Positions 20,801 through 64,000 of a DNA stretch of 64,000 bases are shown one piece after another (position 1 is the stretch's first letter; every line of letters starts with the position of its first letter). Made by a program: the position numbers and the translations under genes. Below the pieces are notes generated by a model, which did no database searches, was not told the DNA's origin, and saw only the letters and a list, made by a program, of their open reading frames with translations. The DNA comes from Nannocystis sp. RBIL2 (GTDB lineage Bacteria; Myxococcota_A; Polyangia; Nannocystales; Nannocystaceae), in NCBI RefSeq assembly GCF_026626745.1, contig NZ_JAPNJW010000002.1, positions 1,126,151 through 1,190,150 on the forward strand, given 5' to 3'.

Positions 20801-20824
20801 CAGGCTGTCCTTCGGGACAGCCTC
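20801..20824. terminator. GC hairpin GGCTGTCC-TTCG-GGACAGCC (UUCG tetraloop)
   Basis: Perfect 8-bp stem with a 4-nt loop just 3' of the FHA gene stop. It belongs to the GGACA/TGTCC palindrome family and has no U-tract. Confidence 0.4.
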
Positions 20825-22935: not shown

Positions 22936-23204
22936 CGTCCTTGCCCCGGTCGTGTGGCGCCTCGGACACGGCCTTTTGGGGCTTGTTCCCGAGGCCCGCG
23001 AGCTTTTTTCGCGCCCGCGCGGGGCGTCTGCGCCGGCGCACGTCCGCGCGCGGACTCGGGCTTCGGGCGCGCCCCTGCGTCCGGCCACGCGTCCGCGGCT
23101 CGCGGCCGGCCGCGGCGGCTTCGTGATACCGTGACCCGAGGCGCCGTCCGTGCCCGGATCCGGGCGAGGCGCGCCTGCTGCCCCTCTCACGCCCTCGCCC
23201 CGGC

Positions 23205-23711
23205 ATGACCTCCGACCTCGCGCCCCCCTCACCTCCCGGCCCGAGCCCGATCCTCACCCTCCGGATCAGCGTCCGCGGGCTATATGACAGCTGGACGCAC
23301 TGCCAGCGGCTGGCCGATTACATCGCGCGCTTCGTCGCCTCCGATCGCTTCGATCCCGAGCAGCTGACCACGCGCCTCTCGACCTATCTCAACGAGGTGC
23401 TCGAGTACGTGTTCCGCGCCCGGCCGAGCGAGGGCGAGATCGTGGTCGAGGTCGGGCGCACGGACGAGCACGTGATCGCCGAGCTGACGATACCGACCGA
23501 CGAGGCGCTCGCGCAGCGGCTGCGCGACGACCTCGGGCGGGTCGCGCCGGCGGACGCGCGCGCGCGCTACGAGGCCGAGTTCGAGTCGATGATCCTGCGT
23601 CCGCCGGCCGAGGTCGGGCTGCTCGAATTGGTCGCGCTCCACGGCGTCGAGCTCACGCTGCGCGAGGGCGACGGCGCCGGCGTCATCGTCCTTACTGTCC
23701 CGCACGAGTGA
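23205..23711 (+). CDS. RsbW-like (GHKL/HATPase_c-fold) putative anti-sigma/serine-kinase homolog, paralog 1
   Basis: Alignable to the 27302..27865 protein. The motifs are degenerate (…YLNEVLEYVFRA…GEIVVEVGRTDEHVIAELTIPTD…). It is the first gene of the operon. Confidence 0.45.
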   Translation: MTSDLAPPSPPGPSPILTLRISVRGLYDSWTHCQRLADYIARFVASDRFDPEQLTTRLSTYLNEVLEYVFRARPSEGEIVVEVGRTDEHVIAELTIPTDEALAQRLRDDLGRVAPADARARYEAEFESMILRPPAEVGLLELVALHGVELTLREGDGAGVIVLTVPHE

Positions 23712-29476: not shown

Positions 29477-29494
29477 AGCGCCGACGGGAAGTCC

Positions 29495-29565
29495 CCGAGG
29501 ACATGTCGCCTCGGACATGTCCCGGAAGACCTTTCCCGCAGAGCATGCCCCTTCGGACATGCCCT
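29495..29565. repeat. 14/28-bp phased array of GACATG(T/C)C half-sites in convergent gap
   Basis: CATG occurs at 29502, 29516, 29544 and 29558 (spacings 14, 28, 14): ggacatgtcgcc, cggacatgtccc, gcatgcccc, ggacatgccc. Confidence 0.8.
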
Positions 29566-29573
29566 TTCGACCA

Positions 29574-31085: not shown

Positions 31086-31137
31086 GCGGGGCCACGATAC
31101 AATGGCGCCTCGGCGGTGGTACACCGGGACGGCCGGC

Positions 31138-32292
31138 ATGGACCTGCGCACTGCCCTCGTCACGCTCCGCCTGCGCCACCCGTTCGGCCTGTCGCGCGGC
31201 ACCGTGAGCGAACTGCCGAGCTTGCTCGTGCGCCTTGACCCGGGCGACCCGGACGGCGCCGCAGCGGACGGCCCCGATCGCCGCGGCCTCGGCGAGGCCT
31301 CGCCCGTGCGCTACCTCGGTCAGTCGGCGATCGCCGCCGCGCCTCTGGCCACAGCGATCGCGGCCGAGCTGTCCCCCGAGATCCTCGCCGACCCGCGCGC
31401 GATCGCGGCCGCCGGCCCGCGCATGCGCGAGCTCGCCCCCGATCACTCCGCGGCCCGCTGCGCCGTCGACACCGCCCTGTGGGACGCGGCCGCGCGCGCC
31501 CGCGGCCGCTCGCTGGCCGAGCTGCTGGCCGACCCCGACGTGCTCGATCGGGCAGGTCTCGATCGCCATGTCCTTTCGGCCACCTCGGGGGCGACCGTCA
31601 CCTCTTACACGATCGCGCTCGACGAGCTCCCGGCGATGGCGGCCCGCGCGGCCGCGGCCGCGCACCTCCCGGTGCTCAAGATCAAGCTCGGCAAGGGCCG
31701 CGAATTCGACCGCAAGGCCGTGCGTGCGATCGCCGCCGCCGCCCCGAACGCCCGCCTGCGGGTCGACGCCAACGGCGGCTGGACCCCGGACGACGTGCGC
31801 GACCTGCTCCCGCTGCTGATCGACCTCGGGGTCGAGCAGCTCGAGCAGCCGCTGCCTGCGGGTCGGCCCGACCTCCTCGCGGCGCTCGCGCGCGACTGCC
31901 CCCTGCCGATCTACGCCGACGAGGACGTGCAGGGCCCGGACGACGTGGCGGCGCTGCGGGGCCGGGTCGCGGGCATCAACGTCAAGCTGATGAAGTGCGG
32001 CGGGATCTCGCCGGCCCTGGCGACGATCGCCGCAGCCCGGGAAAACGGCCTGCGGGTGCTCGTCGGCTGCATGATCGAGACCCGCGTCGGGCTCGCCGCC
32101 GGCGCCGCCCTGGCCCGCCTCGCCGACGAGGCCGACCTCGACGCCCACATGCTCACGCGGGCCGACCCGATGCCGCCGGGGAGTCAAGAGCGGCTCGCGC
32201 CCGACCTGCCGCGGCTTTGCGGCCCCGGCCTCGGCGTCCCGCCCGGGGCGTTGCCCGCGGACGGCGACCCGGGGCCCGGGCGCGTGGCATAA
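31138..32292 (+). CDS. enolase-superfamily dipeptide epimerase (L-Ala-D/L-Glu epimerase-like)
   Basis: MR/MLE-family metal ligands (KIKLG…RVDANGGW…EQP…ADE…KLMKCGG). Divergent from the kinase. Confidence 0.7.
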   Translation: MDLRTALVTLRLRHPFGLSRGTVSELPSLLVRLDPGDPDGAAADGPDRRGLGEASPVRYLGQSAIAAAPLATAIAAELSPEILADPRAIAAAGPRMRELAPDHSAARCAVDTALWDAAARARGRSLAELLADPDVLDRAGLDRHVLSATSGATVTSYTIALDELPAMAARAAAAAHLPVLKIKLGKGREFDRKAVRAIAAAAPNARLRVDANGGWTPDDVRDLLPLLIDLGVEQLEQPLPAGRPDLLAALARDCPLPIYADEDVQGPDDVAALRGRVAGINVKLMKCGGISPALATIAAARENGLRVLVGCMIETRVGLAAGAALARLADEADLDAHMLTRADPMPPGSQERLAPDLPRLCGPGLGVPPGALPADGDPGPGRVA

Positions 32293-32305: not shown

Positions 32306-35300
32306 TTGAATCCCGACGAGCCCCAGGCCCGCGCCTCGCTGCCGGTGACGCCACCTGTCCCTGAGGACATCCTTCCGCGTCCGCTCGGCCGCTACGAGCT
32401 GGTGCGTCGGGTCGGCTCCGGCAGCATGGGCGTCGTCTACGCCGCGCTCGATCGCGACAGCGGCCGCACCATCGCGGTCAAGACCCTGCACCAGCTCGAC
32501 CCGGGCGCGCTGTTCCGCCTCAAGAACGAGTTCCGCAGCGCCGCCGGCCTGTCGCACCCCAACCTCGTCAGCCTCCACCAGCTCGTCTCGCACGACGACG
32601 AGTGGTTCATCACCATGGAGTTCGTCGACGGCGTCAGCTTCGTCGACCATGTCCGTCAGGGCATGTCCGAAAAGCCAGGCGCTGCGCCGCCGCCGGAGCG
32701 CCTGCGCCCGGCCCTGCTGCAGCTAGCCGCCGGCGTCAGCGCCCTGCACGCCGCCGGCAAGCTGCACCGCGACCTCAAGTCGTCGAACGTGCTGGTGACC
32801 GCCGATGGCCGCGTCGTCATCCTCGACTTCGGCCTCGCCGCCGACGACGTCGCCGAGGGCGGCGAGGACGGCCTGCTCGGCACGCCGGCGACGATGGCGC
32901 CGGAGCAGGCCGCCGGCAACCCGGCCTCGCCCGCGAGCGACTGGTACGCGATCGGCGTCATGCTCTACGAGGCGCTCACCGGCCGCCTGCCGTTCACCGG
33001 CCCGCCGCTCGCGATCCTCCACGCCAAGCAGCACGAAGATCCGGCCCCGCCGCAGGCGCTCGTGCCCGACGTCGATCCGGAGCTGGCGACCCTGTGCGTG
33101 GGCCTGCTGCAGCGCGACCCGGCCGCGCGGCTCGGCGGCGCCGACATCCGCGAGGCCCTCGGCGAGGCCCCGCTCGGCCCCACCGAGTCGGGCGCGCGCT
33201 TCGTCGGCCGCGACGACCTGCTGTCGGCGATGCGCGACGCCTTCCAGCTCGCGCTCGCCGGCTCGCCGGTGTGCGTGTACGTCCGCGGCCGCTCCGGCAT
33301 CGGCAAGACCGCGCTCATCGATCGCTTCATCGCCGAGCTGCGCCGCAACGACCGCGCCTTCGTCCTCCAGGGCCGCTGCTACGAGCGCGAGAGCGTGCCG
33401 TACAAGGCCTTCGACAGCGTCCTCGACGCGCTCGCGCAGCACCTCCGCCACCTCCCGCAGGAGGAGGCCGCGGCCCTGCTGCCGCGCGAGATCCACGAGC
33501 TCACGCGGCTGTTCCCCGTCCTCGCGCGCGCCCCCGTGGTCGCCGATCTGCCGCAGCGCAACTTCGTCGCCCCCGACCCGCAAGAGGCACGGCGTCGGGC
33601 CTTCCGCGGGCTCAAGGAGCTGCTGGCGCGGATCGCCGATCGCCGCCCCCTGGTGCTGCGGATCGCCGATCTCCAGTGGGGCGACGAGGACAGCGCGCGC
33701 CTGCTCGCCGAGCTGCTGTCGCCGCCCGATCCGCCGGCGATGCTCTTCATCGGCTCGTACCGCATCGACGAGGACGACGCGCCGATGCTCCGCGAGCTGC
33801 GGCGGCTCGGCGCGCGGCCCGAGCTCAAGGCTCTGGTGCGCGACCTGCTGGTCGAGCCGCTCTCGCCCGATCAGGCCGAGGAGCTCGCGCTGGCCCGGCT
33901 CGGCCGTGACAGCGACAGCGCCCGCGCCGAGGCGCGCCGGATCGCCGCCGAGTCGGGCGGCAACCCGCTGTTCGTCGAGGAGCTCGCGCGCCACATCGCC
34001 GGTCACCGCGGCGCCGCGCCGGCCGAGGTCTCGCTCGACGCGGTCGTGCGCACTCGCCTCGCCGGCCTGCGCGCCGCGGGTCGCAGCCTGCTCGAGATCG
34101 TCGCCATCGCCGGGCGGCCGATCCCGCCGAGCCTCGCGTTCACGGCCTCGGGCGTCACCGATCGCTCGGTCCTCGGCGAGCTGCAGGCGCAGCACCTGCT
34201 GCGCACTCTGGCCTCGCGCAGCGGCGACACCGTCGAGTGCTATCACGACCGGATCCGCGACACCGTGCTGGCGCAGCTCGACGGCGAGCGCCAGGCGCAG
34301 CTGCACCGCACCCTCGCCGACGCGCTCGCGCAGTCGGCCGACGACCCCGAGCTGCTGGCGCACCACCTCCACGCCGCCGGCGCCTTGAAGGAGGCGCACG
34401 CCGCCGCCGTCGCCGCCGCCGAGCGGGCCGCCGCCGCGCTCGCGTTCTACCGCGCCGCCCAGCTGTACGGCCGCGCCCTCGCGTGGGCGCCCGACCTCCC
34501 GGACGACGAGCGCCGCGCCCTCCTCCGCCGTCGCGCCGACGCGCTCGCGCTGGCCGGTCGCAGCGCCGAGGCGGCCCCGGTCTACGCCAGCGCCGCCGAG
34601 GGCGCCTCGCCGGCCGAATCACTCGAGCTGCGCCGCCGCGCCGGCGAGCAGTTCCTCGTCAGCGGCAACATCGACCAGGGCGTGCGGATGCTGCGCCCCG
34701 CGCTGGTCGAGGTCGACCTCGGCTACCCGGCCACGCCGGGCCGCGCCAACATGTCGATCATCACCCGCTCCACGCAGCTCAGCTTGCGCGGGCTCGGCTT
34801 CGCCGCGGTGCGCGAGGAGCAGGTCCCGCCGGCCGATCTGCTGCGCCTCGACGTGTGCCTGTCGGCGGCCGTCGGCCTCGCCTTCGTCGATCCGATCCGC
34901 GGCTACAGCTTCTACCAGCGCGGCCTCCTCCTGGCCCTTCAGACAGGTGAGCCGCAGCGCATCGCCCGCGCGCTCGCCGGCGTCGGCGCCATGATCATGA
35001 GCCGCGGCACCGCCAACGCCGTCAGCCGCGGCACCACCCTGCTCAAGGAGGCGCGCCGCCTCGCCGAACAGATCTCGGAGCCGCGCCTCATCGGCCTGTG
35101 CGAGATCGTCGACGCCATCGCCGCCGTCTCGCTCGGCCGCTGGCGCCGCGCGCTCGAGCACTGCGAGCAGGGCGCCCAGATCCTGCTCGACCGCTGCGTC
35201 GGCGTCGGCTGGGAGCTCGACCTCGCCCGCATGAGCACGATGCGCGGCCTGTTCATGCTCGGCGAGCTGGCCGAGCTCGGCCACCGCGCCCACGCCTGGC

Positions 35301-36125: not shown

Positions 36126-36193
36126 GACCGACCAGCGTGAGCTCCGCAGCCCGACCGGCGTGAGCTCCGCAGCCCGACCGGCGTGAGCCCCGC
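36126..36193. repeat. 3 x 22-23 bp tandem direct repeat upstream of purT
   Basis: cgaccagcgtgagctccgcagc / ccgaccggcgtgagctccgcagc / ccgaccggcgtgagccccgcacc. Confidence 0.8.
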
Positions 36194-36303
36194 ACCGCCG
36201 CGCATCGGCCCGCGCGAGGCCCTGGCCGACGCGTGTGACCTCGCGCCCGCGGCGCCCGCCTTGCCGCGCGCGACAGTGCGCCACTATCCTGCGCGCGCTC
36301 GCC

Positions 36304-37500
36304 ATGGATCTCACGCTCGGCACTCCTCTGTCTCCCTCGTCCACACGGCTGCTCCTGCTCGGCTCGGGCGAACTCGGCCGCGAGGTTGCGATCGAAGCCA
36401 TGCGCCTCGGCGTCGAGGTCATCGCGTGCGACCGCTACGCCAACGCTCCGGCGATGCAGGTCGCGCACCGCAGCCACGTGTTCGACATGCAGGACCGCGA
36501 CGCGGTGCGGGCCGTCGTCGCCCGCGAGAAGCCCCACTACATCGTCCCCGAGATCGAGGCCATCGCCACCGACGCGCTGGTCGAGCTCGAGAGCGAGGGC
36601 TGGGCAGTCATCCCGACCGCGCGGGCCACCCGGCTCACCATGGACCGCGAGGGCATCCGCCGCCTCGCCGCCGAGCAGCTCGGCCTGCCGACCAGCCCGT
36701 ACGCCTTCGCCGACACGCGCGAGGAGGTCGAGGCCGCGGTCCAGCGCCTCGGCCTGCCGTGCGTGATCAAGCCCGTCATGTCGAGCTCGGGCAAGGGTCA
36801 GAGCACCGTGCGCACCGCCGCCGACGTCGCCGTCGCGTGGGAGTACGCGCTGTCGGGCGCCCGCGGCCGCTCGGCCCGCGTCATCGTCGAGGGCTTCGTC
36901 CCGTTCGACTACGAGATCACGCTGCTCACGATCCGCACGCGCCACGAGGGCACCCTGTTCTGCCCGCCGATCGGCCACCGGCAGGAGCGCGGCGACTACA
37001 TGGAGTCGTGGCAGCCGCACGCGATGGCGCCGCAGGCCCTCGCCCGCGCGCAGGAGATCGCCGCCGCAGTCACCGAGGCGCTCGGCGGCGCCGGCCTGTT
37101 CGGCGTCGAGCTGTTCGTCGTCGGCGACGACGTCATCTTCAGCGAGGTCAGCCCGCGCCCGCACGACACCGGCATGGTCACCATGATCACGCAGGATCAG
37201 AGCGAGTTCGAGCTGCACGTGCGCGCGATCCTCGGCCTCCCGATCGGCCAGGTCATCCTCCGCGCGCCCGGGGCCTCCGCCGTGGTCCTGGCCGATCGGC
37301 CAGGCACCAACCCGCGCTTTACCGGCGTCGGCAAGGCGCTCGCCGACCCGCGCACCAAGATCCGCCTGTTCAGCAAGCCCGACACCCGCAAGTACCGGCG
37401 CATGGGCGTCGTCCTGGCCTACGGCGACGACGTCGCCGAGTGCCGCGCCCGCGCCGAAGCAGCCGCCGCCGAGATCCGCGTGGTCGTCGACGCCGGCTGA
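36304..37500 (+). CDS. purT: formate-dependent phosphoribosylglycinamide formyltransferase (GAR transformylase 2)
   Basis: ATP-grasp fold. PurT-specific N-terminus ([24 protein letters not shown]) and PurT-type C-terminus. Confidence 0.9.
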
Positions 37501-37514
37501 GCATTGCGACTTCG

Positions 37515-37690
37515 GGACATGTCACTCGCTACATGTCTCATGCGGCATGTCTTTATCGACATGTCGCATGGTCCATCCGCGTTCTCTCTGAGGATCGCCG
37601 TTGGCGGCCGCACTCTCGGCGACGCCAGACGAGCGACTGCTTGCGATCGGACATGTCGTCACGACATGTCCCAGAAGCCATGAGAGCGAG
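37515..37690. repeat. dense cluster (>=8 copies) of ACATGTC half-sites incl. strict 14-bp phased array
   Basis: CATG at 37518, 37532, 37546 and 37560 (period 14), then 37567, plus GGACATGTCGTC and CGACATGTCCC at 37648-37675. Lies between the convergent purT and 37736 genes. Confidence 0.85.
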
Positions 37691-37735
37691 TCCGCCGTGG
37701 CTCGCCCCAGCGGCCGCGCTCGGAGGAAGAGCGGC

Positions 37736-39058
37736 TCACTGGTCGAACAGCTCGAGCAGCGTGCGCAGCCCCGGCGAGCCGGGTGCCTGTGGCTTCTCGG
37801 CCAGCGCGCGGCGGATCTCGAGGTGCGCCGCCGGCAGGATCGACTGCAGCTGCTCGAGCGCCTTCGAATCGTCGCTCTGGGCCGCTGCCACCTTCGCCCG
37901 CACCCGCTCGCTCCCGGGCCTCGCGAGCCGCTGGCCGACGTCCCACGCAGTCACCACCGCGCCTGCTCCGAGGGACATGTCCCCGAGTTCATCGTGGCGC
38001 AGCTTCGCCGGTCGCCCGCTCGCCAGCACGTCCAGCCGGCCCAGAGTAAACCGCTGCCCCGCCTGCAGCTCCGACGCCCGGCCCGCGCGCAGCAGCGTCA
38101 CGCCCGCGTCGACCACGGTCAGAGACAGCGTCGCCTCGACCGTCCACGTCCCCGCGTCGATCTGCGGATAGTGCCCCTTCGCCGCCGCCAGCAGCCCCTT
38201 CGGCACCTTCAAGCCCGAGTAGCCGACCGGCGGGGCTGCCTTGCTGCGCCACGCAGTGAACTCGATCGGCCCCGTCTCGAACTGGCCCTTCAGCAGCGCC
38301 TCGCAGGCCCGCAGGTGCCGCTCGATCCGCCCGAAAAGCTCCGCCCGCTCCGATGCGCTCACCGGCAGCGGCGCCGCCCGGCGCCACACGTAGCCCGCCA
38401 GCCCCGCGTGGTAGAGCGGCAGCGCCTCCATGCTGCTCAGCAGCGCCTGCAGCTCCGCGATCGTCTCGCTGCCGCCTGCCTTGCGCGCCTCCACGTGCGC
38501 CCGCCAGCGGCTGCGAAACGCCTCGCCCTCGGCGCCGCCGGCCGCGTCGGCCAGCGCCTCGAGGGCGGACGCGACCTGCAGCCACCGCGGGTCCTGGGCC
38601 GGCGTCGCCTCCGGCACCGGCACCAGCGCCAGCGCGAACCGCTTGCCCGGCCCGACGGCGAACCCGTCGTCCGCGACGAGCCGCGCCCACCTGCCCAGCG
38701 CCGCCTCGTCGGCCAGCGGGAATGCGTCGGGCCCGAGCGTCGGCGTCGTCCCCGAGCTCTCCGGAGCATTTGCCCCTTGGGACATGTCCTCTTCGACCTG
38801 CTGCGATGGACCTGCCCCAACCGACATGTCCTGAGAGCCCGGCACAGCCCCCTGCCCGTCCGGCTCCTCGCGCCCGCGCAGCCGGTCGGCGCAGCCCTGC
38901 ACGAACACGATCAGCAGCGCGAGCAGCCGGATCGCCGGCGCCGCCGTGCTCGACAGCAGCGCCACGTGACCCCGACGCCAGCGGAGCACCACCGCCGCGG
39001 CCAGCGCGAGCGCCACCGCGAACGAGCCCAGGTCGAGCCACCAGCGCCTCACACCGCC
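37736..39058 (-). CDS. hypothetical membrane-anchored protein
   Basis: N-terminal TM (WWLDLGSFAVALALAAAVVL) with GTG start near 39058, overlapping the rSAM gene end. Contains repeated DMS-x-GAG motifs. Confidence 0.45.
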   Translation of the reverse strand, partial: GGVRRWWLDLGSFAVALALAAAVVLRWRRGHVALLSSTAAPAIRLLALLIVFVQGCADRLRGREEPDGQGAVPGSQDMSVGAGPSQQVEEDMSQGANAPESSGTTPTLGPDAFPLADEAALGRWARLVADDGFAVGPGKRFALALVPVPEATPAQDPRWLQVASALEALADAAGGAEGEAFRSRWRAHVEARKAGGSETIAELQALLSSMEALPLYHAGLAGYVWRRAAPLPVSASERAELFGRIERHLRACEALLKGQFETGPIEFTAWRSKAAPPVGYSGLKVPKGLLAAAKGHYPQIDAGTWTVEATLSLTVVDAGVTLLRAGRASELQAGQRFTLGRLDVLASGRPAKLRHDELGDMSLGAGAVVTAWDVGQRLARPGSERVRAKVAAAQSDDSKALEQLQSILPAAHLEIRRALAEKPQAPGSPGLRTLLELFDQ

Positions 39059-40095
39059 TCCTTGCGGCAGGCGCCGAACGCCTGCTCGCGGCACGGGTTG
39101 CCGTTGCGGGCCTGCAGCCAGCACTCGTGGCCGTCCGAGCACTCGCGGTGGCCGGCGCTGCGGAAGCGCGTGAAGCCGCGGGTCCAGATGTCACGCAGCG
39201 GCCGGTCGCGCACGTTGCCCTCCGACTCGCGCAGGTCGGTGGTGGTGCACGGAAGCACCTCGCCGGTCGCCCCGACGACGCAGGAGATCCGGCCGGCCCC
39301 GCACAGGAACGGCTGGTCGCGGTAGAAGCGATCGTCGGCGCCGGCGCTGCCCCACTCGTTGCACAGCTCGACGTGGAACAGCCCGCGCTTGCGGCGGGCG
39401 AACGCGGCCACGCGGCGCAGCTGCTCCGGCGTCGGACACAGCGCGGTGTGCTCGGCGCCGCGGCCCTCCGGAGCGAAGAGATGGAGGCCCCACGAATCGG
39501 CCCCCGAGGCTGCGACGATCGGGAACAGGTCGGCCAGGCGGTCGGCGTTCTCGCGCGTCACGGTCGTCCCCGCCACCACCTCCGGACAGCCGCACTCCTT
39601 GAGCGTGCGGATAGCAGCCAGCGCCGCCGCGTGGCTGCCCTGGCGCCCGCGGAACAGGTCGTGCTGCCGCTGCTCGCCGTCGAGGCTGATCGCCGCCAGA
39701 GTCGGCGGGTGGCGTTCGAACAGCGACCTGAACTTGGGGACATGTCCCCCGTGCGTGTGCATCGCCCACTCGAGCCCCTGCGCCCGCGCGTGCGCTACGA
39801 TCTCGGCGATGTCGCGGCGCAGCAACAGCTCCCCGCCCGCGATCACGAAGGTCGGCCGGCCGAGCGCCACCAGCTCGTCGACCACCAGACGGATCGCCTC
39901 CTGCGTCGTCAGCTCGCCCTCGGCCCGCTTGCCCGCGCCGGAGTAGCAGTGCGGACAGCGGAGGTCGCACATCGCAGTGGCGATCCACTGCACCGCGAGC
40001 GGCCGGCGGACCAGTCGGAGCGCGTGCAGCAGCCGCGTCTCGGTCTCCCAGACCTCGGGCGCGGCGCGAGCATACAGACGGTGGAGCAGGCCCAT
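39049..40095 (-). CDS. radical SAM protein with C-terminal SPASM/twitch Cys cluster
   Basis: CxxxCxxC radical-SAM motif (CDLRCPHCY) and C-terminal cysteines (CGAGRISC…C…CSDGHEC…C…C). Confidence 0.8.
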   Translation of the reverse strand: MGLLHRLYARAAPEVWETETRLLHALRLVRRPLAVQWIATAMCDLRCPHCYSGAGKRAEGELTTQEAIRLVVDELVALGRPTFVIAGGELLLRRDIAEIVAHARAQGLEWAMHTHGGHVPKFRSLFERHPPTLAAISLDGEQRQHDLFRGRQGSHAAALAAIRTLKECGCPEVVAGTTVTRENADRLADLFPIVAASGADSWGLHLFAPEGRGAEHTALCPTPEQLRRVAAFARRKRGLFHVELCNEWGSAGADDRFYRDQPFLCGAGRISCVVGATGEVLPCTTTDLRESEGNVRDRPLRDIWTRGFTRFRSAGHRECSDGHECWLQARNGNPCREQAFGACRKEAV

Positions 40096-43768: not shown

Positions 43769-43897
43769 GCTGACGCAGGAGACATGTCCCTGGGACCAGC
43801 ATGATCATCTGGCTCTCGGGACATGCCCCTCGAGCCAGGTGCACATCGGCCGGCCCTCGGGACATGTGAGCACTCGTCCGAGGCGTCGCCGGCGAGC

Positions 43898-46402: not shown

Positions 46403-46404
46403 GC

Positions 46405-46490
46405 TGCCGGCTGTCCGCGAGGACAGCCGCACCTGTTCGAGAGGACAGCCTGCGCGGCGCTACGCCGCGCCTGCCCTTTCGGACAGCCTC
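46405..46490. repeat. GGCTGTCC-N4-GGACAGCC hairpin plus two further GGACAGCC copies in convergent gap
   Basis: ggctgtccgcgaggacagcc at 46409-46428 is a perfect 8-bp stem with a GNRA-type loop; ggacagcc recurs at 46443 and 46481. Confidence 0.8.
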
Positions 46491-47445: not shown

Positions 47446-48711
47446 ATGTCCGGACGCGACTCCCACTCCGAAGACCCGCGCGGGCCCCGGCCGCTGCACC
47501 CGCACGTCGAGCTCGCCGAGCCGCCCGACGACCCCGGCTTGGAGCTTGGCGCCGACATCGCCGATCCCGGCCTCTCGGGGTTGTTGCGCCGCGGGGTCAA
47601 GGCCGCGATCGCGCGCTGGGCCGTGCTCCGACGACCCGCCGCCGAGTGGCCGCGCCCGCAGGACGAGGCCCGCCACGCCTGGGACGGCCGGCCGCACTTC
47701 GCCGAGGAGTTCGTGTTCGTCGGCGTGCAGCCCGAGCTCGCCGTGCTCGCGCGCCTCGAGTGGTTGCCGGACCGCGACGCGCACCGCGTCTGGCTCACCC
47801 TCTTCACGCCCACAGCGATCTACTGCCTCCCCGGCGGCCAGGCCCTGCTGCGCGGCGACGGCGAGCGCGGCTGGTCCGTGGGCGGCCTCGGCTTCGACTG
47901 CGTCGAGCCGCTGCGCACCTGGACCCTGCGCTACCGCGGCACCTTGCACGTCCACGACCCGCGCGGCCGGCCGGTGCGCCCCGCCGGCGACGCCCCCGCC
48001 GAGTCGATCGAGGCCCGCATCGACCTCACCTTCCTCGCCGGCCTCTTGCCGTTCGTCCCCGGCACCGACGACGACCCCGACCTGCTCGCGCGTCAGCTCG
48101 GCGCTGCCGCGTGGGACACCCGCTTGCTCCGCGCAGTGCGCCGCCACCCGCTCCGCGGCTACGTCCAGGCCGGCGATCTTCACGGCACGATCACCCTCGG
48201 TAGCGACCTGCGGGCTTTCGGCGGCGCTGCCCTGCGCGTCCACAATTGGGGCGTGCGTGACTGGGGCGCCAGCGACGCCGCCATGCAGTGCTTCGCCACT
48301 CTCGGCCCGCTGCGGACGTGGGTGCACACCGCCCGCTTCCCGTGGGTGAGCCTGTCCGGCGGCTTCGTCCAGCGGCCCGGCGGCGTCGTCCCTATCCGCG
48401 ACCTCGGGGTCACGCAGGAGCGCCGCCCCGGCCGCGCGCCCGCTCGCACCGGCCTCGCCGTCGAGGCCCCCGGCGGCCCGCTCGCCCTCGAGGCCGAGAC
48501 CGTCGCCGAGCTCCCGCTCGACATGGACGGCCGCGGCCACCTCGACATCGCCCTCGTGCGCGTCCACGCCCGCGGCGAACGCCCGCCCGCCCGCGCCGAG
48601 GGCCCCCGCCTCGTCAGCGGCCCCGCGCGCCCGCACGAGGAGCCGCACGGCTGGGGCCTCTGCTTCACCCAACGCCGCCTGCTCCCGCGCCCCACGCCGC
48701 GCACCGGCTGA
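47446..48711 (+). CDS. hypothetical protein
   Basis: Long ORF with coding-like GC3 skew. No recognised domain. Confidence 0.45.
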   Translation: MSGRDSHSEDPRGPRPLHPHVELAEPPDDPGLELGADIADPGLSGLLRRGVKAAIARWAVLRRPAAEWPRPQDEARHAWDGRPHFAEEFVFVGVQPELAVLARLEWLPDRDAHRVWLTLFTPTAIYCLPGGQALLRGDGERGWSVGGLGFDCVEPLRTWTLRYRGTLHVHDPRGRPVRPAGDAPAESIEARIDLTFLAGLLPFVPGTDDDPDLLARQLGAAAWDTRLLRAVRRHPLRGYVQAGDLHGTITLGSDLRAFGGAALRVHNWGVRDWGASDAAMQCFATLGPLRTWVHTARFPWVSLSGGFVQRPGGVVPIRDLGVTQERRPGRAPARTGLAVEAPGGPLALEAETVAELPLDMDGRGHLDIALVRVHARGERPPARAEGPRLVSGPARPHEEPHGWGLCFTQRRLLPRPTPRTG

Positions 48712-48794
48712 TCTGTCCGTTCGGGCATGTCCTCTGGACCACGCCTCGGCACGGCCTCTTTTTTCACCCGGCGCAGCCTGCTCCGCGCACCGGA

Positions 48795-48890
48795 TGGCAT
48801 GTCCATTCAGGCATGTCCGATGAACCATGCCTCATCAAGCATGTCTTATCGAACATGCCCAAGAGAGCATGTTCTCAAGCGCATGCCATC
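48795..48890. repeat. 7-unit array of CATG(Y)C motifs with strict 13-15 bp period
   Basis: CATG at 48798, 48812, 48827, 48840, 48854, 48868 and 48882: ggcatgtcc/ggcatgtcc/ccatgcctc/gcatgtctt/acatgccc/gcatgttc/gcatgcca. Confidence 0.85.
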
Positions 48891-49022: not shown

Positions 49023-49547
49023 TCAGCCGGCCTGCTCGTCGAGCTCGTCGGCGAACGCCTCGGCCGTCTCTGCGTCGGCCGGCGCCTCCATGTCGGGCGC
49101 GTCGGTGCGGACGAAGTCCAGCGGACCGAGCCCGCCGTAGCGGATCTCGCCGGTCAGCGCGGAGCTCTCGCGGTTAATCAGCACGTAGCCGCCGCCGCGA
49201 CCGCCACGGCCGTCCTGCCAGTGAAACGTCACCAGGTTGCTCGGCTGCATCGCCCCGCCTTCGGGCGGCGTGGCCCGGATCTGGCGCAGGTTGGCGACGT
49301 AGCGGATGAGCCCGTCCTCGCTGGTGAAGCGGCCGTAGTAGCGATCGCTCGCCAGCCGCTGGATCGTCAGCGTGCCGAAGATGCCCGCGCTCTCGCCGAC
49401 CCACTCGCCGGTGAAGTCGCTGACCCCCTCCGGATAGACCTCGCCGGAGGGCGGCGTCACGTCGACCACGTCCGTGGCCAGCGCGCCGTTCGGCTTGCAG
49501 CCGCCGGCGAGCGCGAGCAGGAGCGCGGCGCGAAGGAGGCGAGCCAT
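49023..49547 (-). CDS. lipoprotein
   Basis: ATG at 49547 gives MARLLRAALLLALAGGC, a lipobox. GGAGG RBS upstream. Confidence 0.6.
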   Translation of the reverse strand: MARLLRAALLLALAGGCKPNGALATDVVDVTPPSGEVYPEGVSDFTGEWVGESAGIFGTLTIQRLASDRYYGRFTSEDGLIRYVANLRQIRATPPEGGAMQPSNLVTFHWQDGRGGRGGGYVLINRESSALTGEIRYGGLGPLDFVRTDAPDMEAPADAETAEAFADELDEQAG

Positions 49548-49714
49548 ACGAGGGATGGTGGATACCTCTCGGCCCGATCCGACGCGGTTCGCTGCTTCCG
49601 CAGCGGTGGCAAAAGTCACACGTTCTGGCCGCGCAGGGGCGCCGGAAACGCACGAGCGTCGCGCCGACGACCTGACTACAATCCCGCCCGGCGATGGGCG
49701 CACGATTCACCACG

Positions 49715-56699: not shown

Positions 56700-57200
56700 C
56701 TCGTCTGGCCGACGCGCGAACGCTCGCCGACGCTCGCTCGACCGCGCGAGGCAACGCCCTCATCGACGCCCGCTCGACGCGCGAGCGCAAGCCCTCTCCG
56801 ACACTCGCTGGACGCGCGGGCGCATCAACCTCGTCGACGCTCGCTCGACCGCGCGAGCGCAGGCCCTCGTCGACGCTCGTTGGACGCGCGGGCGCATCGT
56901 CCGCTTCGGCGCTCGCTCGACCGCGCGAGCACAACGCCTTCATCGCCACTCACTCCGGCGCGAGCACACCTTCCTCGTCGACGCACGCTGAGCGCGCGAG
57001 CGCGAGCGCTCATCGCCACTCGGGCGCGAGCGCGAGCTCTCATCGCCACTCACTCAAGCTCGAGAGCTCTCCACTCGAGCTCGAGCACTCGCCTTTCATC
57101 GCCGCTCACGCGAGCGCGAGCGCATCGTCTCGTCCGCACACCCACGAGCGCATCGTCCTCATAGCGACTCACTCGAACACCGCGCATCGTCATCGACGAC
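56700..57200. repeat. degenerate 36/72-bp tandem minisatellite with internal CGCTCG…CGAGCG hairpins
   Basis: GCTCGCTCGACCGCGCGAGC recurs at 56731, 56838 and 56910, and the sub-unit CG(C/T)T(C/G)GACGCGCG(A/G)GCGCA recurs at 56771, 56805 and 56877. Further degenerate copies extend to ~57190. Confidence 0.8.
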
Positions 57201-57293: not shown

Positions 57294-58082
57294 TCATGCT
57301 CGCGTGCGCGAGCGGGATCCAGTTTTCGGCGGACGGGTGAGCGAGGGTTTCTGGCGGCTTCGGTACGACTCGCCTTCGATGACGAGGTCGTAGGCGTTGC
57401 TGGTGAAGCGATCGATCGCTGCCTGGGCGCGGACGGGGTCGGCGAAGACTGCGAGCCATTCGTCAGGGCCACGGTTCGAGGTGACGATGATCGAGCCGTG
57501 GCGGTGACGCTCGGTGAAGATTTCGTAGGCGTCGCGGCTCTCGGTCGCGTCCATCGCGTCGAGGCCGAAGTCGTCGAGGATCAGCACGTCGACGGCGAGG
57601 ATCTTGCGCAGCTCGGCGTCGTAGGAGCCGTCGAGTCGAGCGTGGCGGAGGTTCTTGAGCAATCGATCACAGCGGTAGGCGAGGACACTGTATTGACGGC
57701 GGCAGGCGGCGTTGCCCAGGGCGTGCGCGAGGAAAGTCTTGCCGACACCGACGGGGCCGACGAGCGCGACGTGAGCGCGAGCCTCGACGAAACGCAGCGA
57801 GCAGAGCTCGGCCCACAGCTCTTGATCGAAGTGGACCCGAGTGGTGCTGTCCCATCCCTCGAGCTGGTGCTCGGGATCGAGACGCGCTTTCTGGCCGCGG
57901 AGCTGGGCGGAGATGCTGTCCCGGCGGCTGACCTCGTCGGTGAGCAGCGTCAGCAGGAAGTCCTGGTGAGGGACCTTCTGCTGGCGTGCGAGGGCGAGCC
58001 GCTCGGGCAGCGTCGATAGCAGGGGGCTGAGTTTGAGTCGCTTGAGGATGGCCTTAAGGTCATGTGAGATGGTATCGGTCAT
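57294..58082 (-). CDS. istB: IS21-family transposition helper ATPase IstB
   Basis: Walker A (GPVGVGKTFLA) and Walker B (DVLILDDFG). Typical IstB N-terminus. Confidence 0.9.
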   Translation of the reverse strand: MTDTISHDLKAILKRLKLSPLLSTLPERLALARQQKVPHQDFLLTLLTDEVSRRDSISAQLRGQKARLDPEHQLEGWDSTTRVHFDQELWAELCSLRFVEARAHVALVGPVGVGKTFLAHALGNAACRRQYSVLAYRCDRLLKNLRHARLDGSYDAELRKILAVDVLILDDFGLDAMDATESRDAYEIFTERHRHGSIIVTSNRGPDEWLAVFADPVRAQAAIDRFTSNAYDLVIEGESYRSRQKPSLTRPPKTGSRSRTRA

Positions 58083-59646
58083 GACGGTTCTCCATGCTTG
58101 GTGTTGGCCGAGAGCGCGTAGATCTGCGCGGGTCGGAGGAATCTCGCCGGCGGTGTCGGCCGGTCGAGGGGGATGGGTTGGGGCTTCACGTCGCGCTCGA
58201 CCATGGCGCGAAGGCGCTTCAGACTCAGCATGTCGGCCGCGAGTGCGATGCCGCAGCAGCGATCGACGACGGCGACGCCGTGGCGCTCGGCGAGGCCACG
58301 CACGCCGTGGACGGTGCGCATGCTGGTCCAAGGCAGCGGGCCGGACAGCAGTCGCCGTACGTACGCGCCGATGTTGGGGCCGAGCTCGTCGGCCTGCTTC
58401 TGCAAGAATTCGATATCACGCATCGCGTAGGCTCGTTTCTCCTTCGGGAAGTCCTCAGGGTTGATGCTGCGGCCGCCGGGCGGCAGCCGCCGACAGATCC
58501 GGATCAGCGTGCTCCGATCGTAGAAGCGGACGCTGCTGCGATCGACTCGAGCCTGCAGCGTGCGACCGATCAGCCGCGTGGGCATCGAGTACAGTGCGCG
58601 CTCGACCTGGACGAAGTGATCGCGCGCGACCTTCGGCGTGCACCACCGCGGCACGTCGTAGGGCTGCTCCGGCGCCGGCAGCAGCACCGGCGCCTCGACA
58701 TTGAGAAAGTGCTCGCGCGGCATCCGACCGGTGGTGCTGTGGCGGTGCGCGCCGTATTCGTCCCGGCACCATCGCTCGGCACGCTCCCGTGCGGCCGCGA
58801 GGTCGCGGATCCGTTCACCGCCGAAGCAGTCGTCACGGACGTCGCGGACCGCTCGCTCGACTCGCGCCTTGTCCTGCGGCCTGCGCACCCGCGCGACGTC
58901 GATCACGAAGCCGCGTGCCTGCGCGTACTCGAGGAAGGCCTCGCACAGCCGCGGCTCGATCGGGTCGGCGCGCTGGACGATCGCCTTGAGGTTGTCGGGG
59001 ATCAGCGTCCGGAAGACGCCGCCGTAGAACGCCCAGGCGGCCTCGCACGCTGCGATCACCTCCTCGACGGTCTCGCGCTCGATCGGATAGACGAAGCGGT
59101 AGCGCGACACGTTCGGCGAGAAGACGAGGACCTTGATCTTGCGCCGCACGCCGCTGCCGTCGGCTCGTACATCCCGACACTGCCGGGATCGCTCTGCAGC
59201 TCGTCGCCGGGCTTGCCATCGACGAGCGGCACCGTCGCCGCCTTCTTGCCGAAGCCGAGTTGCTGCGTGGCAAAGCGGTGCAGCGTCGCGTACGGCACGA
59301 CGACTCCCTGCCGCTGCAGTAGCTTGCGGATCTTGGTCAGCCGCACGTCGTGCTGGAGATGCCCCTCGATGAAGGTCCGCTCGCGCTCGCATGCCCGCCA
59401 CGCCTCGCCATGCTCGTGCGGCACCGGCTTCTTCAGCTCGGCGATCACGGCGTCCAGCCGCGCATCCGTCAGCTGCTCGCGGCCACCGCCGGCGACGACG
59501 CCGTGCGCCTCACCGACCTCGAGGTAGCGCCGCACGGTCTTCGGATCGAGACGCAACTGCGCGGCGATCCGCTTCTTGGCGACGCCGAGAAGCCTCAGCC
59601 TTAGAACTTCCTTGATCTCGATCATCGTGACCTCTCGGTACGCCAT
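58079..59646 (-). pseudogene. istA: IS21-family transposase IstA, disrupted by a frameshift near 59130-59170
   Basis: The N-terminal HTH part (59056-59646; MIEIKEVLRLRLLGVAKKRIAAQLRLDPKTVRRYL) and the C-terminal DDE part (58079-59401; …KIKVLVFSPNVSRYRFVY…) lie in different frames. The conserved ELQVDFG motif is degenerate (ELQSDPG). Confidence 0.8.
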
Positions 59647-60059
59647 GGGCTCCTCGCGCCCGGCTTCCTCGCCGGACTCGGGAGCGGGGTACCCGCTCGG
59701 TCACGCAGGGGGGAAAGGTGGTGAGAAACTCAGCCCCCGGCAGGGGGGAAAGATGCTGAGAAACTCGGTCCCCAGAGGGGGGAAAGGTGGTGAGAAATTC
59801 GCCCCCGAAGGGGGGATTGCTGCTGAGAACTGACACGCACCGAGTTCTCGATCGATGCTCGCCCGCTCGGCCCGCCTCGAGCGCCTCGGGCTCTCGTTCG
59901 AGGCTCGATCGATCGCGTGAACGCCTCGCCTCCTACTCCTCGCGCCAGCGTCACGTATCACCCGATTTGCGGGCCTCGTGTACGACCTGTCGCGCCGCGC
60001 CCGAAGCCGGCGCGCGAGCCGACCCCGATGCATGACGAGCGCCGCGATGGGCTCCGAGC

Positions 60060-60270
60060 GCCGCGCTCGCTTCGGACAAAAGTCCGACGAGCTCGTGCGT
60101 CGCGCTCGCATCGGACACAAGTCCGGCGAACCCATGCGCTGCGATCGCAATACACCTCGCGGACATCAGTCCGCCGCGCGGCCAGCCACGCACCACCCGA
60201 CCCGCACTCCTTGCAGCGACGTCATCCGGACATCAGTCCGCGAACCGACCGCGACATCGGTCCGCGATCG
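60060..60270. repeat. array of 5 CGGACA-N4-GTCCG hairpin repeats upstream of lipoprotein gene
   Basis: cggacaaaagtccg (60073), cggacacaagtccg (60113), cggacatcagtccg (60162 and 60223), and gacatcggtccg (60253). Confidence 0.8.
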
Positions 60271-60335
60271 GACCCCATGCCCTCGCGCCGGCACGCATCG
60301 GGCCGCGCGCGCGGGCACCTGCTACTGTGAGCGCA

Positions 60336-62075: not shown

Positions 62076-62942
62076 GTGGCCACTTTCGACCCCGAGCTCC
62101 GACTCGTCCTCTCGCTCGCCCGCGAGGCCGGCGCCATCGCCCTGGCCTATCAGACAGGTGGTGCCGACGTCATGCAGGCCCAGGACAAGCCTGACGACGC
62201 TGGCCCGGTCACTCGTGCGGACACCGAGATCAACGCGCGCCTGGTCGCTGCGCTTCGCGCGGCCTTCCCTGGCGACGCGGTCGTCGCCGAGGAGTCCGCC
62301 GACGACGCCGCCGCAGCCGCCGACGTCTCGCGCTGCTGGTACGTCGACCCGATCGACGGCACCGCCGAGTACGCCCGCGGCGAGAGCTGCTGGGCGATCC
62401 AGATCGGCCTCTGCATCGGCGGCGAACCCGTCCTCGGCGTGGTCTACGAGGCCGGCGCGGCGCGCCTCTCGTGGGGCATCTGCACGCCCGATCGGCGCGA
62501 GGCGTTCGTCCTCGACGACAGCGGCGCGGCCACCCCGCTGCGTGCCAGCGGTCGCTCGCTCGCCGAGCTACGCCTCGTCAGCAGCCTGAGTCACGCCTCC
62601 CCGAAGACCCTCGAGGTCATGCAGGTGCTCGGCATCCCGCCGGAGCGCAACCTCCGACTCGGCTCAGTCGGCGTGAAGGTGGGCACCATCGCCCGCGGCG
62701 AGGCCGACCTTTACGTCCACCCGCGCAGCGGCACCAAGCTGTGGGACACCTGCGCGCCGTGGGCCCTGCTACGCGCCGTCGGCGGCGTCATCACCGACCT
62801 GTGGGGCCATCCACTGATCTACGACCCGCGTCGGCTCGGCCACGACAATGGTTTGGTCGCCTCGCACGGCGCGCACCACGACGACATCCTCGCGGCCATC
62901 CGTCCGCTCGTCGACGCCTGGTACCGCTCGCCACTCGCATGA
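62076..62942 (+). CDS. inositol monophosphatase/CysQ-family phosphatase
   Basis: GTG start. IMPase motifs (…AEESAD…, WYVDPIDGTAEY, WDTCAP). Confidence 0.8.
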   Translation: MATFDPELRLVLSLAREAGAIALAYQTGGADVMQAQDKPDDAGPVTRADTEINARLVAALRAAFPGDAVVAEESADDAAAAADVSRCWYVDPIDGTAEYARGESCWAIQIGLCIGGEPVLGVVYEAGAARLSWGICTPDRREAFVLDDSGAATPLRASGRSLAELRLVSSLSHASPKTLEVMQVLGIPPERNLRLGSVGVKVGTIARGEADLYVHPRSGTKLWDTCAPWALLRAVGGVITDLWGHPLIYDPRRLGHDNGLVASHGAHHDDILAAIRPLVDAWYRSPLA

Positions 62943-62944
62943 CC

Positions 62945-63010
62945 TTGCGGACAGGTGTCCTGGCACATGTTCTAGCGGACATGTGTCCTCGAGCCTGTCC
63001 TTGCGGGCAT
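62945..63010. repeat. cluster of GGACA-N2-TGTCC-type palindromes in convergent gap
   Basis: ggacaggtgtcc, ggacatgtgtcc and gcgggcatgcccgc (a perfect 14-bp palindrome). Confidence 0.8.
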
Positions 63011-63027
63011 GCCCGCAGGCGCCGACC

Positions 63028-63951
63028 TCAGCGCGACTTTGCGATCACCACGATCGCCGCGATCACCGCGGCCACCAGCAGGACCGTCAGCACGATCTTG
63101 ACCACGCTCCACGGCCGCTCGCCCGCGACCTCGCCGGTGCGGGCGTTGACGATGAAGCGGAACACCTTCTCCTTGTAGCGGAAGCTCGAGATCCACAGCG
63201 GCAGGAGCACGTGCTTGCACTTCACGTCCGCGTGGCGGACCTGCATCGACAGGATCTGCTGCACGTCGCCGCCGATGTCGCTGCGGATGGCCGAACGGAT
63301 GTCCGGCTGCATGCGCTCGTCGGCGACCTGGAACCCGTCCTCGAGCCCGATCCGGTAGCGCTCGGCGATGAAGCCGCTGAGGTAGCCGGCCTCGAAGCCG
63401 CGCAGGTTGTGGAGGTCCCACGGCTCGAGCTTCTCGATCAGCGGCCGCGGCAGCGACTGCGACCCGCACACCAGCACGTCGTCGAAGCCGACGTGGACCG
63501 TCCCGCTCGCCGGGCGCCAGCGCGTCTTCTGCACCTGCCGCGTCTGCCGGTTGCCCTGCGCGTCGGTGTACGACTCGGTCACGTAGTAGTGATCGCCGCG
63601 CAGCCCCTTGTAGCGCGTCGTCGTCTGCGAGTCGTAGGTCCAGTACGGCAGGTAGACCCCGTCGATCCCGTGGACCTGCGCCAGCCGCTTCAGGTCGTTC
63701 GGCGCGAACCACAGCTTGCGGACCCACTGCTGGAACGCCTCGCGGGCCTTCGGCCCGTCGATGCCGAACGGCAGCAGCGACTCCGGCGGCACGATCTCGC
63801 CGAGCTCCTTCACGTCCATCACCACCGGCGCGCCACAGAACGCGCAACGACCGGCCTGTCCGGCCAGCATCGCCTGCGCGCCGCAGCCCTCGCACTGGAC
63901 GCTGTGGCTGCCCAGAGTCGACGCCGGCGCGCGGGCGATCCGCTGCAACAT
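63028..63951 (-). CDS. hypothetical protein with N-terminal zinc-ribbon (CxxC…CxxC) and C-terminal TM helix
   Basis: SVQCEGCGAQAMLAGQAGRCAFCGAPV, then a C-terminal TM (IVLTVLLVAAVIAAIVVIA). The upstream end is close to the window edge. Confidence 0.5.
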   Translation of the reverse strand: MLQRIARAPASTLGSHSVQCEGCGAQAMLAGQAGRCAFCGAPVVMDVKELGEIVPPESLLPFGIDGPKAREAFQQWVRKLWFAPNDLKRLAQVHGIDGVYLPYWTYDSQTTTRYKGLRGDHYYVTESYTDAQGNRQTRQVQKTRWRPASGTVHVGFDDVLVCGSQSLPRPLIEKLEPWDLHNLRGFEAGYLSGFIAERYRIGLEDGFQVADERMQPDIRSAIRSDIGGDVQQILSMQVRHADVKCKHVLLPLWISSFRYKEKVFRFIVNARTGEVAGERPWSVVKIVLTVLLVAAVIAAIVVIAKSR

Positions 63952-64000
63952 GGTCTCGAAGTCATGTTCGAGGATCGATCGCTCGCCCTGGATCGCCTGC

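Follow-up and report, generated by a model that had tools for sequence, protein, structure and literature searches.

The CATG array and its 14-bp period

We analysed a stretch of 64,000 nucleotides from the genome of Nannocystis sp. RBIL2 (contig NZ_JAPNJW010000002.1, positions 1,126,151 to 1,190,150 of the forward strand; G+C content 71%), called the window below, and in particular an array of short CATG-containing repeats at 48795-48890. The array lies between the stop codons of two convergent genes, 47446-48711 (+) and 49023-49703 (-), neither of which has a Pfam match. It holds seven in-phase units, with CATG at 48798, 48812, 48826, 48840, 48854, 48868 and 48882; no strand is assigned to this array or to the other sites described here. 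The first unit of the intergenic region stands apart from the array at 48714-48733 (TGTCCgttcGGGCA|TGTCC) and begins 3 nt past the stop codon of the 47446-48711 gene. The half-sites of the array are degenerate, mostly nnGCA|TGYCn, and the array belongs, as a rather degenerate example, to a very abundant, genus-specific family of palindromic extragenic sites in Nannocystis.

The strict 14-bp period of CATG had been reported in an original prediction made from the sequence letters. All six spacings in the array are exactly 14 bp; the third CATG, placed at 48827 in that prediction, starts one position earlier, at 48826. The coordinates given for two further sites with the same phasing were correct (CATG at 37518, 37532, 37546 and 37560, and at 29502, 29516, 29544 and 29558), and the former also carries off-phase CATGs, shifted by 7, at 37539 and 37567. 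All three sites are intergenic, each between the stop codons of convergent genes, and they belong to one family, as had been proposed. The three sites counted as independent are real, but three is an undercount: when up to one mismatch is allowed, the window contains 29 units where 1.46 are expected, and the family is genus-wide.

The period stands far above chance. CATG-N10-CATG occurs 20 times in the window, as compared with 0.43 ± 0.70 (maximum 2) in 100 dinucleotide shuffles. Among all 239 CATGs in the window, pairs spaced by 14, 28 and 42 bp number 20, 11 and 11, and any other spacing is seen at most 7 times, mostly 0-4 times. Beyond the named sites, in-phase pairs start at 6135, 8623, 15586, 32648, 37665, 50471 and 62966, and pairs at 28 or 42 bp are found at 38783/38825 and within 62938-63008. 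Pooling of copies did not flatten the spacing distribution, the outcome that the original prediction had named as fatal to it. In 99 further Nannocystis loci the spacings peak at 14 (299 pairs), 28 (112), 42 (89) and 56 bp (38) over a background of about 3-30; each of these loci had been ascertained by one 14-bp pair, and the 14-bp signal remains after the ascertained regions are removed.

The array is non-coding and periodic, and it is not a clustered regularly interspaced short palindromic repeat (CRISPR) locus. CRISPR arrays have repeats of at least 23 nt, unique spacers of about 26-72 nt and usually cas genes; the Nannocystis arrays have 10-bp cores and 4-bp spacers and are dispersed at many loci. 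A CATG-specific restriction-modification system was also considered and set aside; CATG is not depleted in the window (239 occurrences versus 168 expected from base composition).

A 14-bp inverted repeat with a fixed gap

The real unit is the 14-bp inverted repeat (C/A)TGTCC-N4-GGACA(G/T). The original prediction gave the half-site wrongly as the 6-bp CATGYC: what can be recognised as a half-site is GGACA/TGTCC, and CATG is just where two abutting units join. Units abut head to tail with zero gap, and the junction GGACA|TGTCC reads ...ACATGT..., which contains CATG. CATG recurs every 14 bp because each of these zero-gap junctions creates one. The period of 14 bp, described as non-helical, has the simple arithmetic source 5+4+5+0, and it also equals four helical turns per three units.

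Half-site counting revealed two arrangements only, TGTCC followed by GGACA at gap 4 and GGACA followed by TGTCC at gap 0. In about 0.9 Mb of Nannocystis DNA, with the regions that ascertained the loci masked, perfect TGTCC-Nk-GGACA was found 152 times at k=4, and 0, 4, 0, 0 and 1 times at k=2, 3, 5, 6 and 8. With one mismatch the N4 form was found 273 times, as compared with about 5-25 times for the gaps N2, N3, N5, N6 and N8. Isolated perfect TGTCC-N4-GGACA (n=130) is threefold more frequent than the isolated 10-bp core palindrome GGACATGTCC (n=45). It is in these isolated perfect units that the N4 form is clearly preferred; at the ends of arrays, scored with one mismatch allowed, neither form stood out clearly. 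Because the gap is strictly 4 or 0 and the isolated N4 form outnumbers isolated GGACATGTCC, we define the unit as the N4 inverted repeat. GGACATGTCC itself is present 6 times in the window versus about 0.05 expected from base composition. Chains with an even number of half-sites (122 and 80) are more frequent than chains with an odd number (59 and 28). The family shows a fixed half-site, a fixed gap, an exact register and half-sites that vary independently, the features by which an array of cooperative sites is recognised.

Symmetric variants with the same N4 gap were also seen, namely TGGCC-N4-GGCCA (11), TGCCC-N4-GGGCA (6), CGTCC-N4-GGACG (5) and TGTCG-N4-CGACA (5), and such variants lie at 6199, 18352 and 37289 in the window. 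They are either compensated members of the family or G+C-rich background.

Location past the stop codons of convergent genes

Sites and arrays are found almost only between convergent genes, starting a few nucleotides past the stop codon. Genes were called from open reading frames (ORFs) chosen by third-position G+C, together with Pfam. With these ORF calls of our own, which are crude for most loci, and with the ascertained regions left out, a site was present in 30 of 54 convergent regions (56%), 19 of 110 tandem regions (17%) and 7 of 49 divergent regions (14%). With the database gene calls of three loci, from N. pusilla Na p29 (L100), N. punicea (L102) and N. pusilla CP185339 (L103), the corresponding counts were 10/13, 0/17 and 2/11. 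For the control gaps N3 and N5, only 0-3 regions had a site. The median distance from the stop codon to the first unit is 26 nt in convergent gaps, which arrays often fill completely, and in tandem gaps arrays keep close to the upstream stop codon and not to the downstream start. The density of in-phase CATG pairs is 3.1/kb in convergent intergenic DNA versus 0.10/kb in coding DNA, and the motif as a whole is depleted in coding DNA (core matches 0.6/kb versus 6.3/kb).

A few units are intragenic, at 32356-32369 and 32650-32663, in the N-terminal part of a gene for a 1228-residue kinase and in an MR_MLE enolase-family gene. They occur at the same codon positions in three species (L100 5187, L102 5061, L103 5289), presumably as a result of coding constraint and not of repeat function.

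Persistence of position and turnover of sequence

Conservation in related strains had been suggested as a check, and we compared orthologous loci in the three genomes above and in metagenomic relatives (L108-L110). Arrays occupy the same intergenic loci in these genomes. What is not conserved is the interior of the arrays, where both the number of units (2-8) and the spacers are scrambled. At the flagged locus the window has 1 + 7 in-phase units, L103 has 6 and L110 (96% protein identity) has 2. L108 and L109 (89% protein identity) have 4 CATG units in an in-phase lattice of about 6, with two positions degenerate, and another CATG out of phase. The unit right after the stop codon is the positionally conserved one in all orthologues.

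A second case is the four-unit array at 37515-37570, which begins 15 nt past the stop codon of purT (36235-37500, +) and faces the gene 37736-39142 (-). Downstream of purT, 3-4 CATG units are found in the same register in four genomes, including two strains of N. pusilla and N. punicea. Column identity in this array is 76% for half-sites and 45% for spacers, and that of the third codon positions of the adjacent purT is 93%. Within arrays, adjacent spacers are identical in 6% of cases versus 0.8% of random pairs and are otherwise as different as random ones. The arrays are therefore not simple products of slippage. These comparisons establish positional persistence and motif retention combined with fast internal turnover.

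A rare recent slippage expansion was noted in N. pusilla Na p29, where L014 3546-3632 is a near-perfect 14-bp tandem, (GGACATGCACGTTC)x6, unlike the usual arrays with unrelated spacers. Entire convergent gaps are also replaced from genome to genome, with flanking genes that are about 92-98% identical in nucleotide sequence. In the purT gap, a segment of ~160 bp at 37575-37735 is present in the window only (compare L100 11268-11284 and L103 11261-11404). This segment, missing from the orthologues, carries a second small array at 37649-37685 (GGACATGTCgtcacGACATGTCC...CATG), and a different segment of ~140 bp is found in the same gap of L103 only. Insertions and deletions seem to concentrate in such gaps generally.

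Taxonomic range

A search of 185,579 species genomes for the double unit GGACATGTC-N5-GGACATGTC returned at least 99 stretches. The matches listed are nearly all from N. pusilla, N. exedens, N. punicea, N. bainbridge, N. radixulma and Nannocystis metagenome-assembled genomes (MAGs), with one Nannocystaceae MAG; the few single matches outside Nannocystis among them are of the number expected by chance. In all five named species the family is dense. No match to the double unit was found in viral contigs. The PurT protein of the window has 100% identity with its counterpart in Nannocystis sp. ILAH1 and 97-99% with those of N. pusilla and N. punicea. In 21-kb loci anchored on purT, members of the N. 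pusilla/punicea clade carry the family at high density, with 4-8 perfect units and 9-11 in-phase CATG pairs. A Nannocystis MAG with 83% PurT identity has few sites (1 perfect unit and 2 in-phase CATG pairs), and the loci of three more distant relatives, with 75-82% PurT identity, have none. In the literature searched no account of the family turned up, and it is apparently undescribed so far.

Matches in Bryobacter, a gammaproteobacterium and Lachnospiraceae were rejected as family members, being single loci that look unrelated or due to chance. At the Bryobacter MAG locus (L036 5855-6260), GGACA/TGTCC half-sites (cggacGGACA repeats) cluster about a gene that has an excisionase-like helix-turn-helix sequence. 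The gammaproteobacterial MAG locus (L048 4227-4250) has one perfect GGACATGTCCctcgGGACATGTCC, 30 nt past a possible nucleoside-diphosphate-kinase-like ORF assigned by eye. These two cases are probably unrelated systems or chance matches.

A predicted protein lattice and its alternatives

What, then, reads these sites? We tentatively favour the view that a predicted dimeric DNA-binding protein acts at the ends of convergent genes and that these are its in-phase binding sites. The fixed half-site and gap, the exact register and the independent variation of the two halves are what a duplex-DNA site read by a dimer would show. The location bias and the retention of half-sites at orthologous loci also count in its favour. 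The idea of a cooperative protein-binding array, put forward in the original prediction with the wrong half-site, is plausible and gives the best fit to the tests run. A sequence-specific dimeric protein would read the sites as duplex DNA, with the centres of the 5-bp half-sites 9 bp apart, about one helical turn, in the 5-N4-5 arrangement of FNR-type operators. Binding to abutting sites would be cooperative. Each 14-bp step would turn a dimer by about 120 degrees relative to the one before, and three dimers would make exactly four helical turns. At convergent ends such a lattice could serve as a two-way barrier or insulator that stops read-through of converging RNA polymerases; alternatively, it could organise or relieve the positive supercoiling built up there. 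The stretch scanned for canonical hairpin-plus-U terminators (28-48 kb) has essentially none, which also fits this reading. From the arrangement of the sites we infer a protein as the reader, its cooperative binding and its function in a barrier or in topology. The strongest version of this scheme is doubtful: a dedicated polymerising protein on 14-bp sites that would form a genome-wide two-way transcription barrier or topological insulator and replace intrinsic terminators in a 71% G+C genome almost devoid of U-tract terminators. If it were true, a dispersed repeat family would be the bacterial counterpart of protein-roadblock termination by Reb1/TTF-I and mTERF.

Several points weigh against a protein reader. 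Arrays with at least two units fold into hairpins that are stable on either strand (-41 to -59 kcal/mol, z -1.9 to -5.8), and the outer positions of adjacent cores covary weakly (odds ratio 2.6, p = 0.017). A strict dimer site would not lead one to expect odd numbers of half-sites, in which about 30% of the lattice chains end. The array interiors evolve faster than synonymous sites, a property that fits unstable or selfish DNA equally well. In the literature on these half-sites as an operator, no bacterial regulator was found, and sequence-specific regulators usually act in promoter-bearing regions and not between stop codons. The location rule itself depends for most loci on the crude gene calls described above.

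A possible but less likely explanation is that the sites act as hairpins on RNA, like repetitive extragenic palindromes (REPs) and bacterial interspersed mosaic elements (BIMEs). Adjacent units would pair (CAUGUCC-N4-GGACAUG or longer) into two-way 3'-end hairpins, which would either terminate transcription without a U-tract or shield both convergent mRNAs from 3' exonucleases; the uniform sequence would then reflect common origin only. The folding of multi-unit arrays on both strands, with z down to -5.8, fits this explanation, as do the terminator-like stems of 7-10 bp with 4-nt loops, the weak covariation at the outer core positions and the excess of chains with even over odd half-site numbers. 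REPs and terminators occupy this very position, past stop codons and between convergent genes, and canonical terminators are missing from 28-48 kb, where a scan for a hairpin plus T-run gave 4 versus 3.6 expected, the level of chance, and 0 at gene ends.

The isolated unit, however, is the commonest form, and its stem has 5 bp only. In 131 isolated perfect units, the flanks at extension positions 1-3 pair at frequencies of 0.48, 0.44 and 0.39 versus 0.43, 0.41 and 0.36 with shuffled partners, so that the extra complementarity is at chance, and 68 of the 131 show no extension of the stem beyond the 5-bp arms. Nor do the spacers flanking a core complement each other. Across the 4-nt gap, T/C and A/G do not covary (odds ratio 0.85), and one-sided mismatches number 273 versus 43 compensated doubles (background 15-29 at other gaps), which gives no sign of compensatory change. 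Among the mismatches across the gap, C·A (29) is as common as T·G (23), the DNA equivalent of G·U. Sense-strand variants that wobble pairing would tolerate and those that it would not show no significant asymmetry, whether in tandem (53 versus 41) or in convergent contexts (74 versus 65).

The loops and the downstream flanks behave similarly. On the sense strand there is no enrichment of UUCG or GNRA loops; the only avoidance, a symmetrical one, is of A at position 1 and of T at position 4. Runs of at least four T follow the sites in 5 of 388 flanks versus 18 of 762 random intergenic 20-mers. A scan of the whole window at the Rfam gathering thresholds gave 0 hits, and neither compensatory change nor a match to a curated family, the marks of a structured RNA family, was found. 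The identity of the sites as intrinsic terminators was rejected, with no U-tract after the sites and the consensus terminator scan at chance level. Hairpins, moreover, need neither an exact N4 gap nor a zero gap between them. None of the tests for selection on pairing gave more than a weak signal. What is conserved is the half-site sequence, the internal gap, the register of units and the independence of the halves; sequence is kept, and not pairing.

It is unlikely, in our estimate, that the sites are selfish or drive-maintained DNA without a host function, tolerated only in promoter-free convergent gaps. They could have been multiplied as a REP-like family by a REP-associated tyrosine transposase (RAYT) of the IS200/IS605 Y1 type, or spread by biased uptake or gene conversion as in Neisseria and Haemophilus. 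The family is genus-specific and very abundant, as 29 sites per 64 kb extrapolate to several thousand in a genome of 12-13 Mb, and among the matches listed its distribution is almost confined to Nannocystis. Unit number shifts quickly between close strains, array interiors are hypervariable, fresh 14-bp duplications arise on occasion, such as the sixfold one in L014, and a bias to convergent gaps is the classic signature of tolerated insertions. Against this, half-sites persist at orthologous positions while spacers randomise, which needs selection or continuous conversion, and the spacers are mutually unrelated. The 14-bp unit with its 5-bp stem is far below the size of any described REP or REPIN (a hairpin-forming REP doublet) and lacks a guide tetranucleotide. 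No RAYT (Y1 transposase) was seen among the window ORFs examined, although no search aimed at RAYT was made. The absence of matches in viral contigs is a further difficulty for selfish spread, and uptake sequences are not expected in strict in-phase arrays or to be so depleted in tandem intergenic regions.

An ordinary minisatellite, that is, a 14-bp tandem repeat made by slippage and then decayed, is highly improbable and largely refuted by the gap counts, the spacer comparison and the isolated-unit counts: a few arrays have near-identical units (L014, L040), the 6% of identical adjacent spacers exceeds the 0.8% of random pairs and Tandem Repeats Finder reports period 14 at 48826-48859 (score 40) and period 28 at 62938-63011 (score 85), but 94% of adjacent spacers differ like random pairs while half-sites are kept, the motif stands 130 times as an isolated single unit at the exact N4 gap, and it occurs at hundreds of unrelated loci in several species. 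The related proposal of a microsatellite derived from one mobile module does not fit the same spacer comparison, the weak detection of only two arrays by Tandem Repeats Finder or the lack of a viral-contig match.

Other sites and repeats in the window

The third named site is part of an array at 29490-29566 (aGTCC-ccga-GGACA|TGTCg-cctc-GGACA|TGTCC...), which fills the 97-bp gap between the stop codons of an adenylate/guanylate cyclase gene (28250-29476, +) and a gene for a Ser/Thr kinase with a cyclic nucleotide monophosphate-binding domain (29574-31202, -); a single decayed unit in it keeps the register. Three isolated TGTCC-N4-GGACA units without a CATG junction, ggcTGTCCgcgaGGACAgcc among them, lie at 46412-46485 between convergent arginase-family and TPR genes, and the gap of these genes (46403-46459) has no CATG and carries the hairpin-like ggcTGTCCgcgaGGACAgcc units instead. 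Between convergent Toluene_X porin and AraC genes, 43778-43870 holds three GGACATGYCC junction palindromes that are off the 14-bp register and whose position is kept in L100 and L103. An array with a 28-bp super-period is found at 62938-63011, between a convergent inositol monophosphatase gene (62076-62942) and 63028-63999.

In the first part of the window, the intergenic region past the gene 4507-5877 (5959-6212) contains a perfect unit at 5959-5972, an in-phase CATG pair at 6135/6149 and the variant TGACC-tgaa-GGTCA at 6199. Two abutting units, gGTCCttcgGGACA|TGTCCggccGcACA, occupy 8611-8640, and two one-mismatch units, at 9175-9188 and 9249-9262, stand between a putative ORF at 8691-9128 (+) and 9346-11391 (-). 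The one-mismatch unit TGTCTattcGGACA at 20346-20359 is near the 5' end of 18741-20222 (-), and the perfect unit at 20806-20819, TGTCCttcgGGACA, follows the stop codon of the gene 20830-23232 (-) at a distance of 11 nt.

The window has two copies of a T-run motif, TTTTTTCACCC(N0-3)GCAGC, an exact one at 48759 and one with 2 mismatches at 6164 (0.11 expected; 1 of 100 shuffles reaches 2 matches). Both copies, within 6160-6182 and 48734-48795, adjoin GGACA/TGTCC units. The copy at 48.7 kb lies within a segment of roughly 60 bp that parts the first unit of the flagged region from the seven-unit array, and the orthologous array in L103 is continuous. The segment could represent either a small insertion or a second family of repeats.

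Further repeats and one mobile element were noted. An IS21-family insertion sequence is located at 57294-59830 on the minus strand, with IstB at 57294-58331 (PF01695, E = 1e-52) and an IstA-like transposase with an rve and a Mu-transposase C-terminal domain at 58079-59401. Just upstream, at 59704-59829, lies a 35-bp direct repeat (x3.3-3.6), as expected for the multiple terminal repeats at the ends of IS21. Beside the element, in a stretch with no convincing gene, a 72-bp tandem repeat at 56723-57021 has about 3-3.7 copies with 78-83% matches. Shorter repeats have units of 39 bp (60058-60149) and 24 bp (60229-60274), and the 23-bp tandem repeat CCGACCGGCGTGAGCTCCGCAGC (x2.9, 95% matches) lies just upstream of purT at 36128-36194.

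Comparison with known systems and significance

The repeat family belongs to the dispersed extragenic palindrome kind, and to no named family. Like REPs, BIMEs and REPINs, it is a lineage-specific, high-copy set of extragenic palindromes arranged in arrays with defined spacing; it sits at gene 3' ends and between convergent genes, and it combines orthologous persistence with strain-variable copy number. For REPINs and RAYTs, the properties compared are those given in PMC3116915 and PMC3337134. The high copy number, the extragenic position and the lineage-specific palindrome of REPs are all found in Nannocystis; the stable stem-loop unit, an imperfect palindrome of about 20-40 nt, is not, the arms being 5 bp around a 4-nt gap. 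The Nannocystis unit also differs from REPs and BIMEs in its 14-bp length, the lack of a 5' tetranucleotide, the zero-gap lattice and the absence of any sign of selection on pairing. REPs of E. coli are bound by gyrase, IHF and Pol I.

In the grammar of the sites the nearest systems are different ones. The 7-bp omega heptads of pSM19035, the 8-bp MetJ metboxes and the ParR/parC iterons are likewise short sites that abut in exact register, and small dimeric proteins (omega, MetJ, ParR) bind such contiguous repeats, direct or inverted, cooperatively and form a helical array round the DNA. At 7 bp per half-site, the Nannocystis lattice resembles a run of heptads in alternating orientation. Those systems, however, are single-locus operators or centromeres beside the genes they control, and the Nannocystis sites are scattered between stop codons in hundreds to thousands of copies. 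The FNR/CRP-type operators (TTGAT-N4-ATCAA) share the 5-N4-5 inverted repeat and its 14-bp length, an architecture expected of a helix-turn-helix dimer touching two successive major grooves. They have another half-site sequence and are promoter sites, usually single, in contrast to the abutting arrays at convergent ends in Nannocystis.

The DNA uptake sequence (DUS) of Neisseria and the uptake signal sequence (USS) of Pasteurellaceae are genus-specific motifs of 9-14 bp at about 0.1-1/kb, often in inverted pairs downstream of genes. The Nannocystis motif is also short, genus-specific and of comparable density, but DUS and USS have neither fixed-gap palindromes nor in-phase arrays and are common inside genes, whereas the Nannocystis motif is tenfold rarer in coding DNA (0.6 versus 6.3/kb). 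Intrinsic terminators share the location just past stop codons, and arrays of two or more units form comparable stems of 7-10 bp with 4-nt loops on both strands; the Nannocystis sites differ in having no U-tract, a uniform sequence without compensatory change and, as single units, a stem of only 5 bp. Overall, the genomic behaviour of the family is nearest to that of REP/BIME clusters, and its site grammar is nearest to that of omega heptads, metboxes and FNR-type 5-N4-5 operators.

Dispersed extragenic palindromes such as REP, BIME and DUS have been known for decades and their functions are still debated. The Nannocystis family has an unusually clean grammar, in which 5-bp half-sites are separated by exactly 4 bp and units follow each other without a gap, and an unusually sharp location rule, that of convergent gene ends. 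The hairpin explanation, which is the usual confounder, fails for single units within the tests possible, and this makes the family a good system for the study of repeat function at gene ends. The fast-changing arrays are potential loci for strain typing, and the motif, which marks gene ends, could improve the annotation of Nannocystis genomes. If the sites are read by a protein, the binder would be easily fished with a synthetic array, and it could show how large, high-G+C myxobacterial genomes end or insulate convergent transcription.

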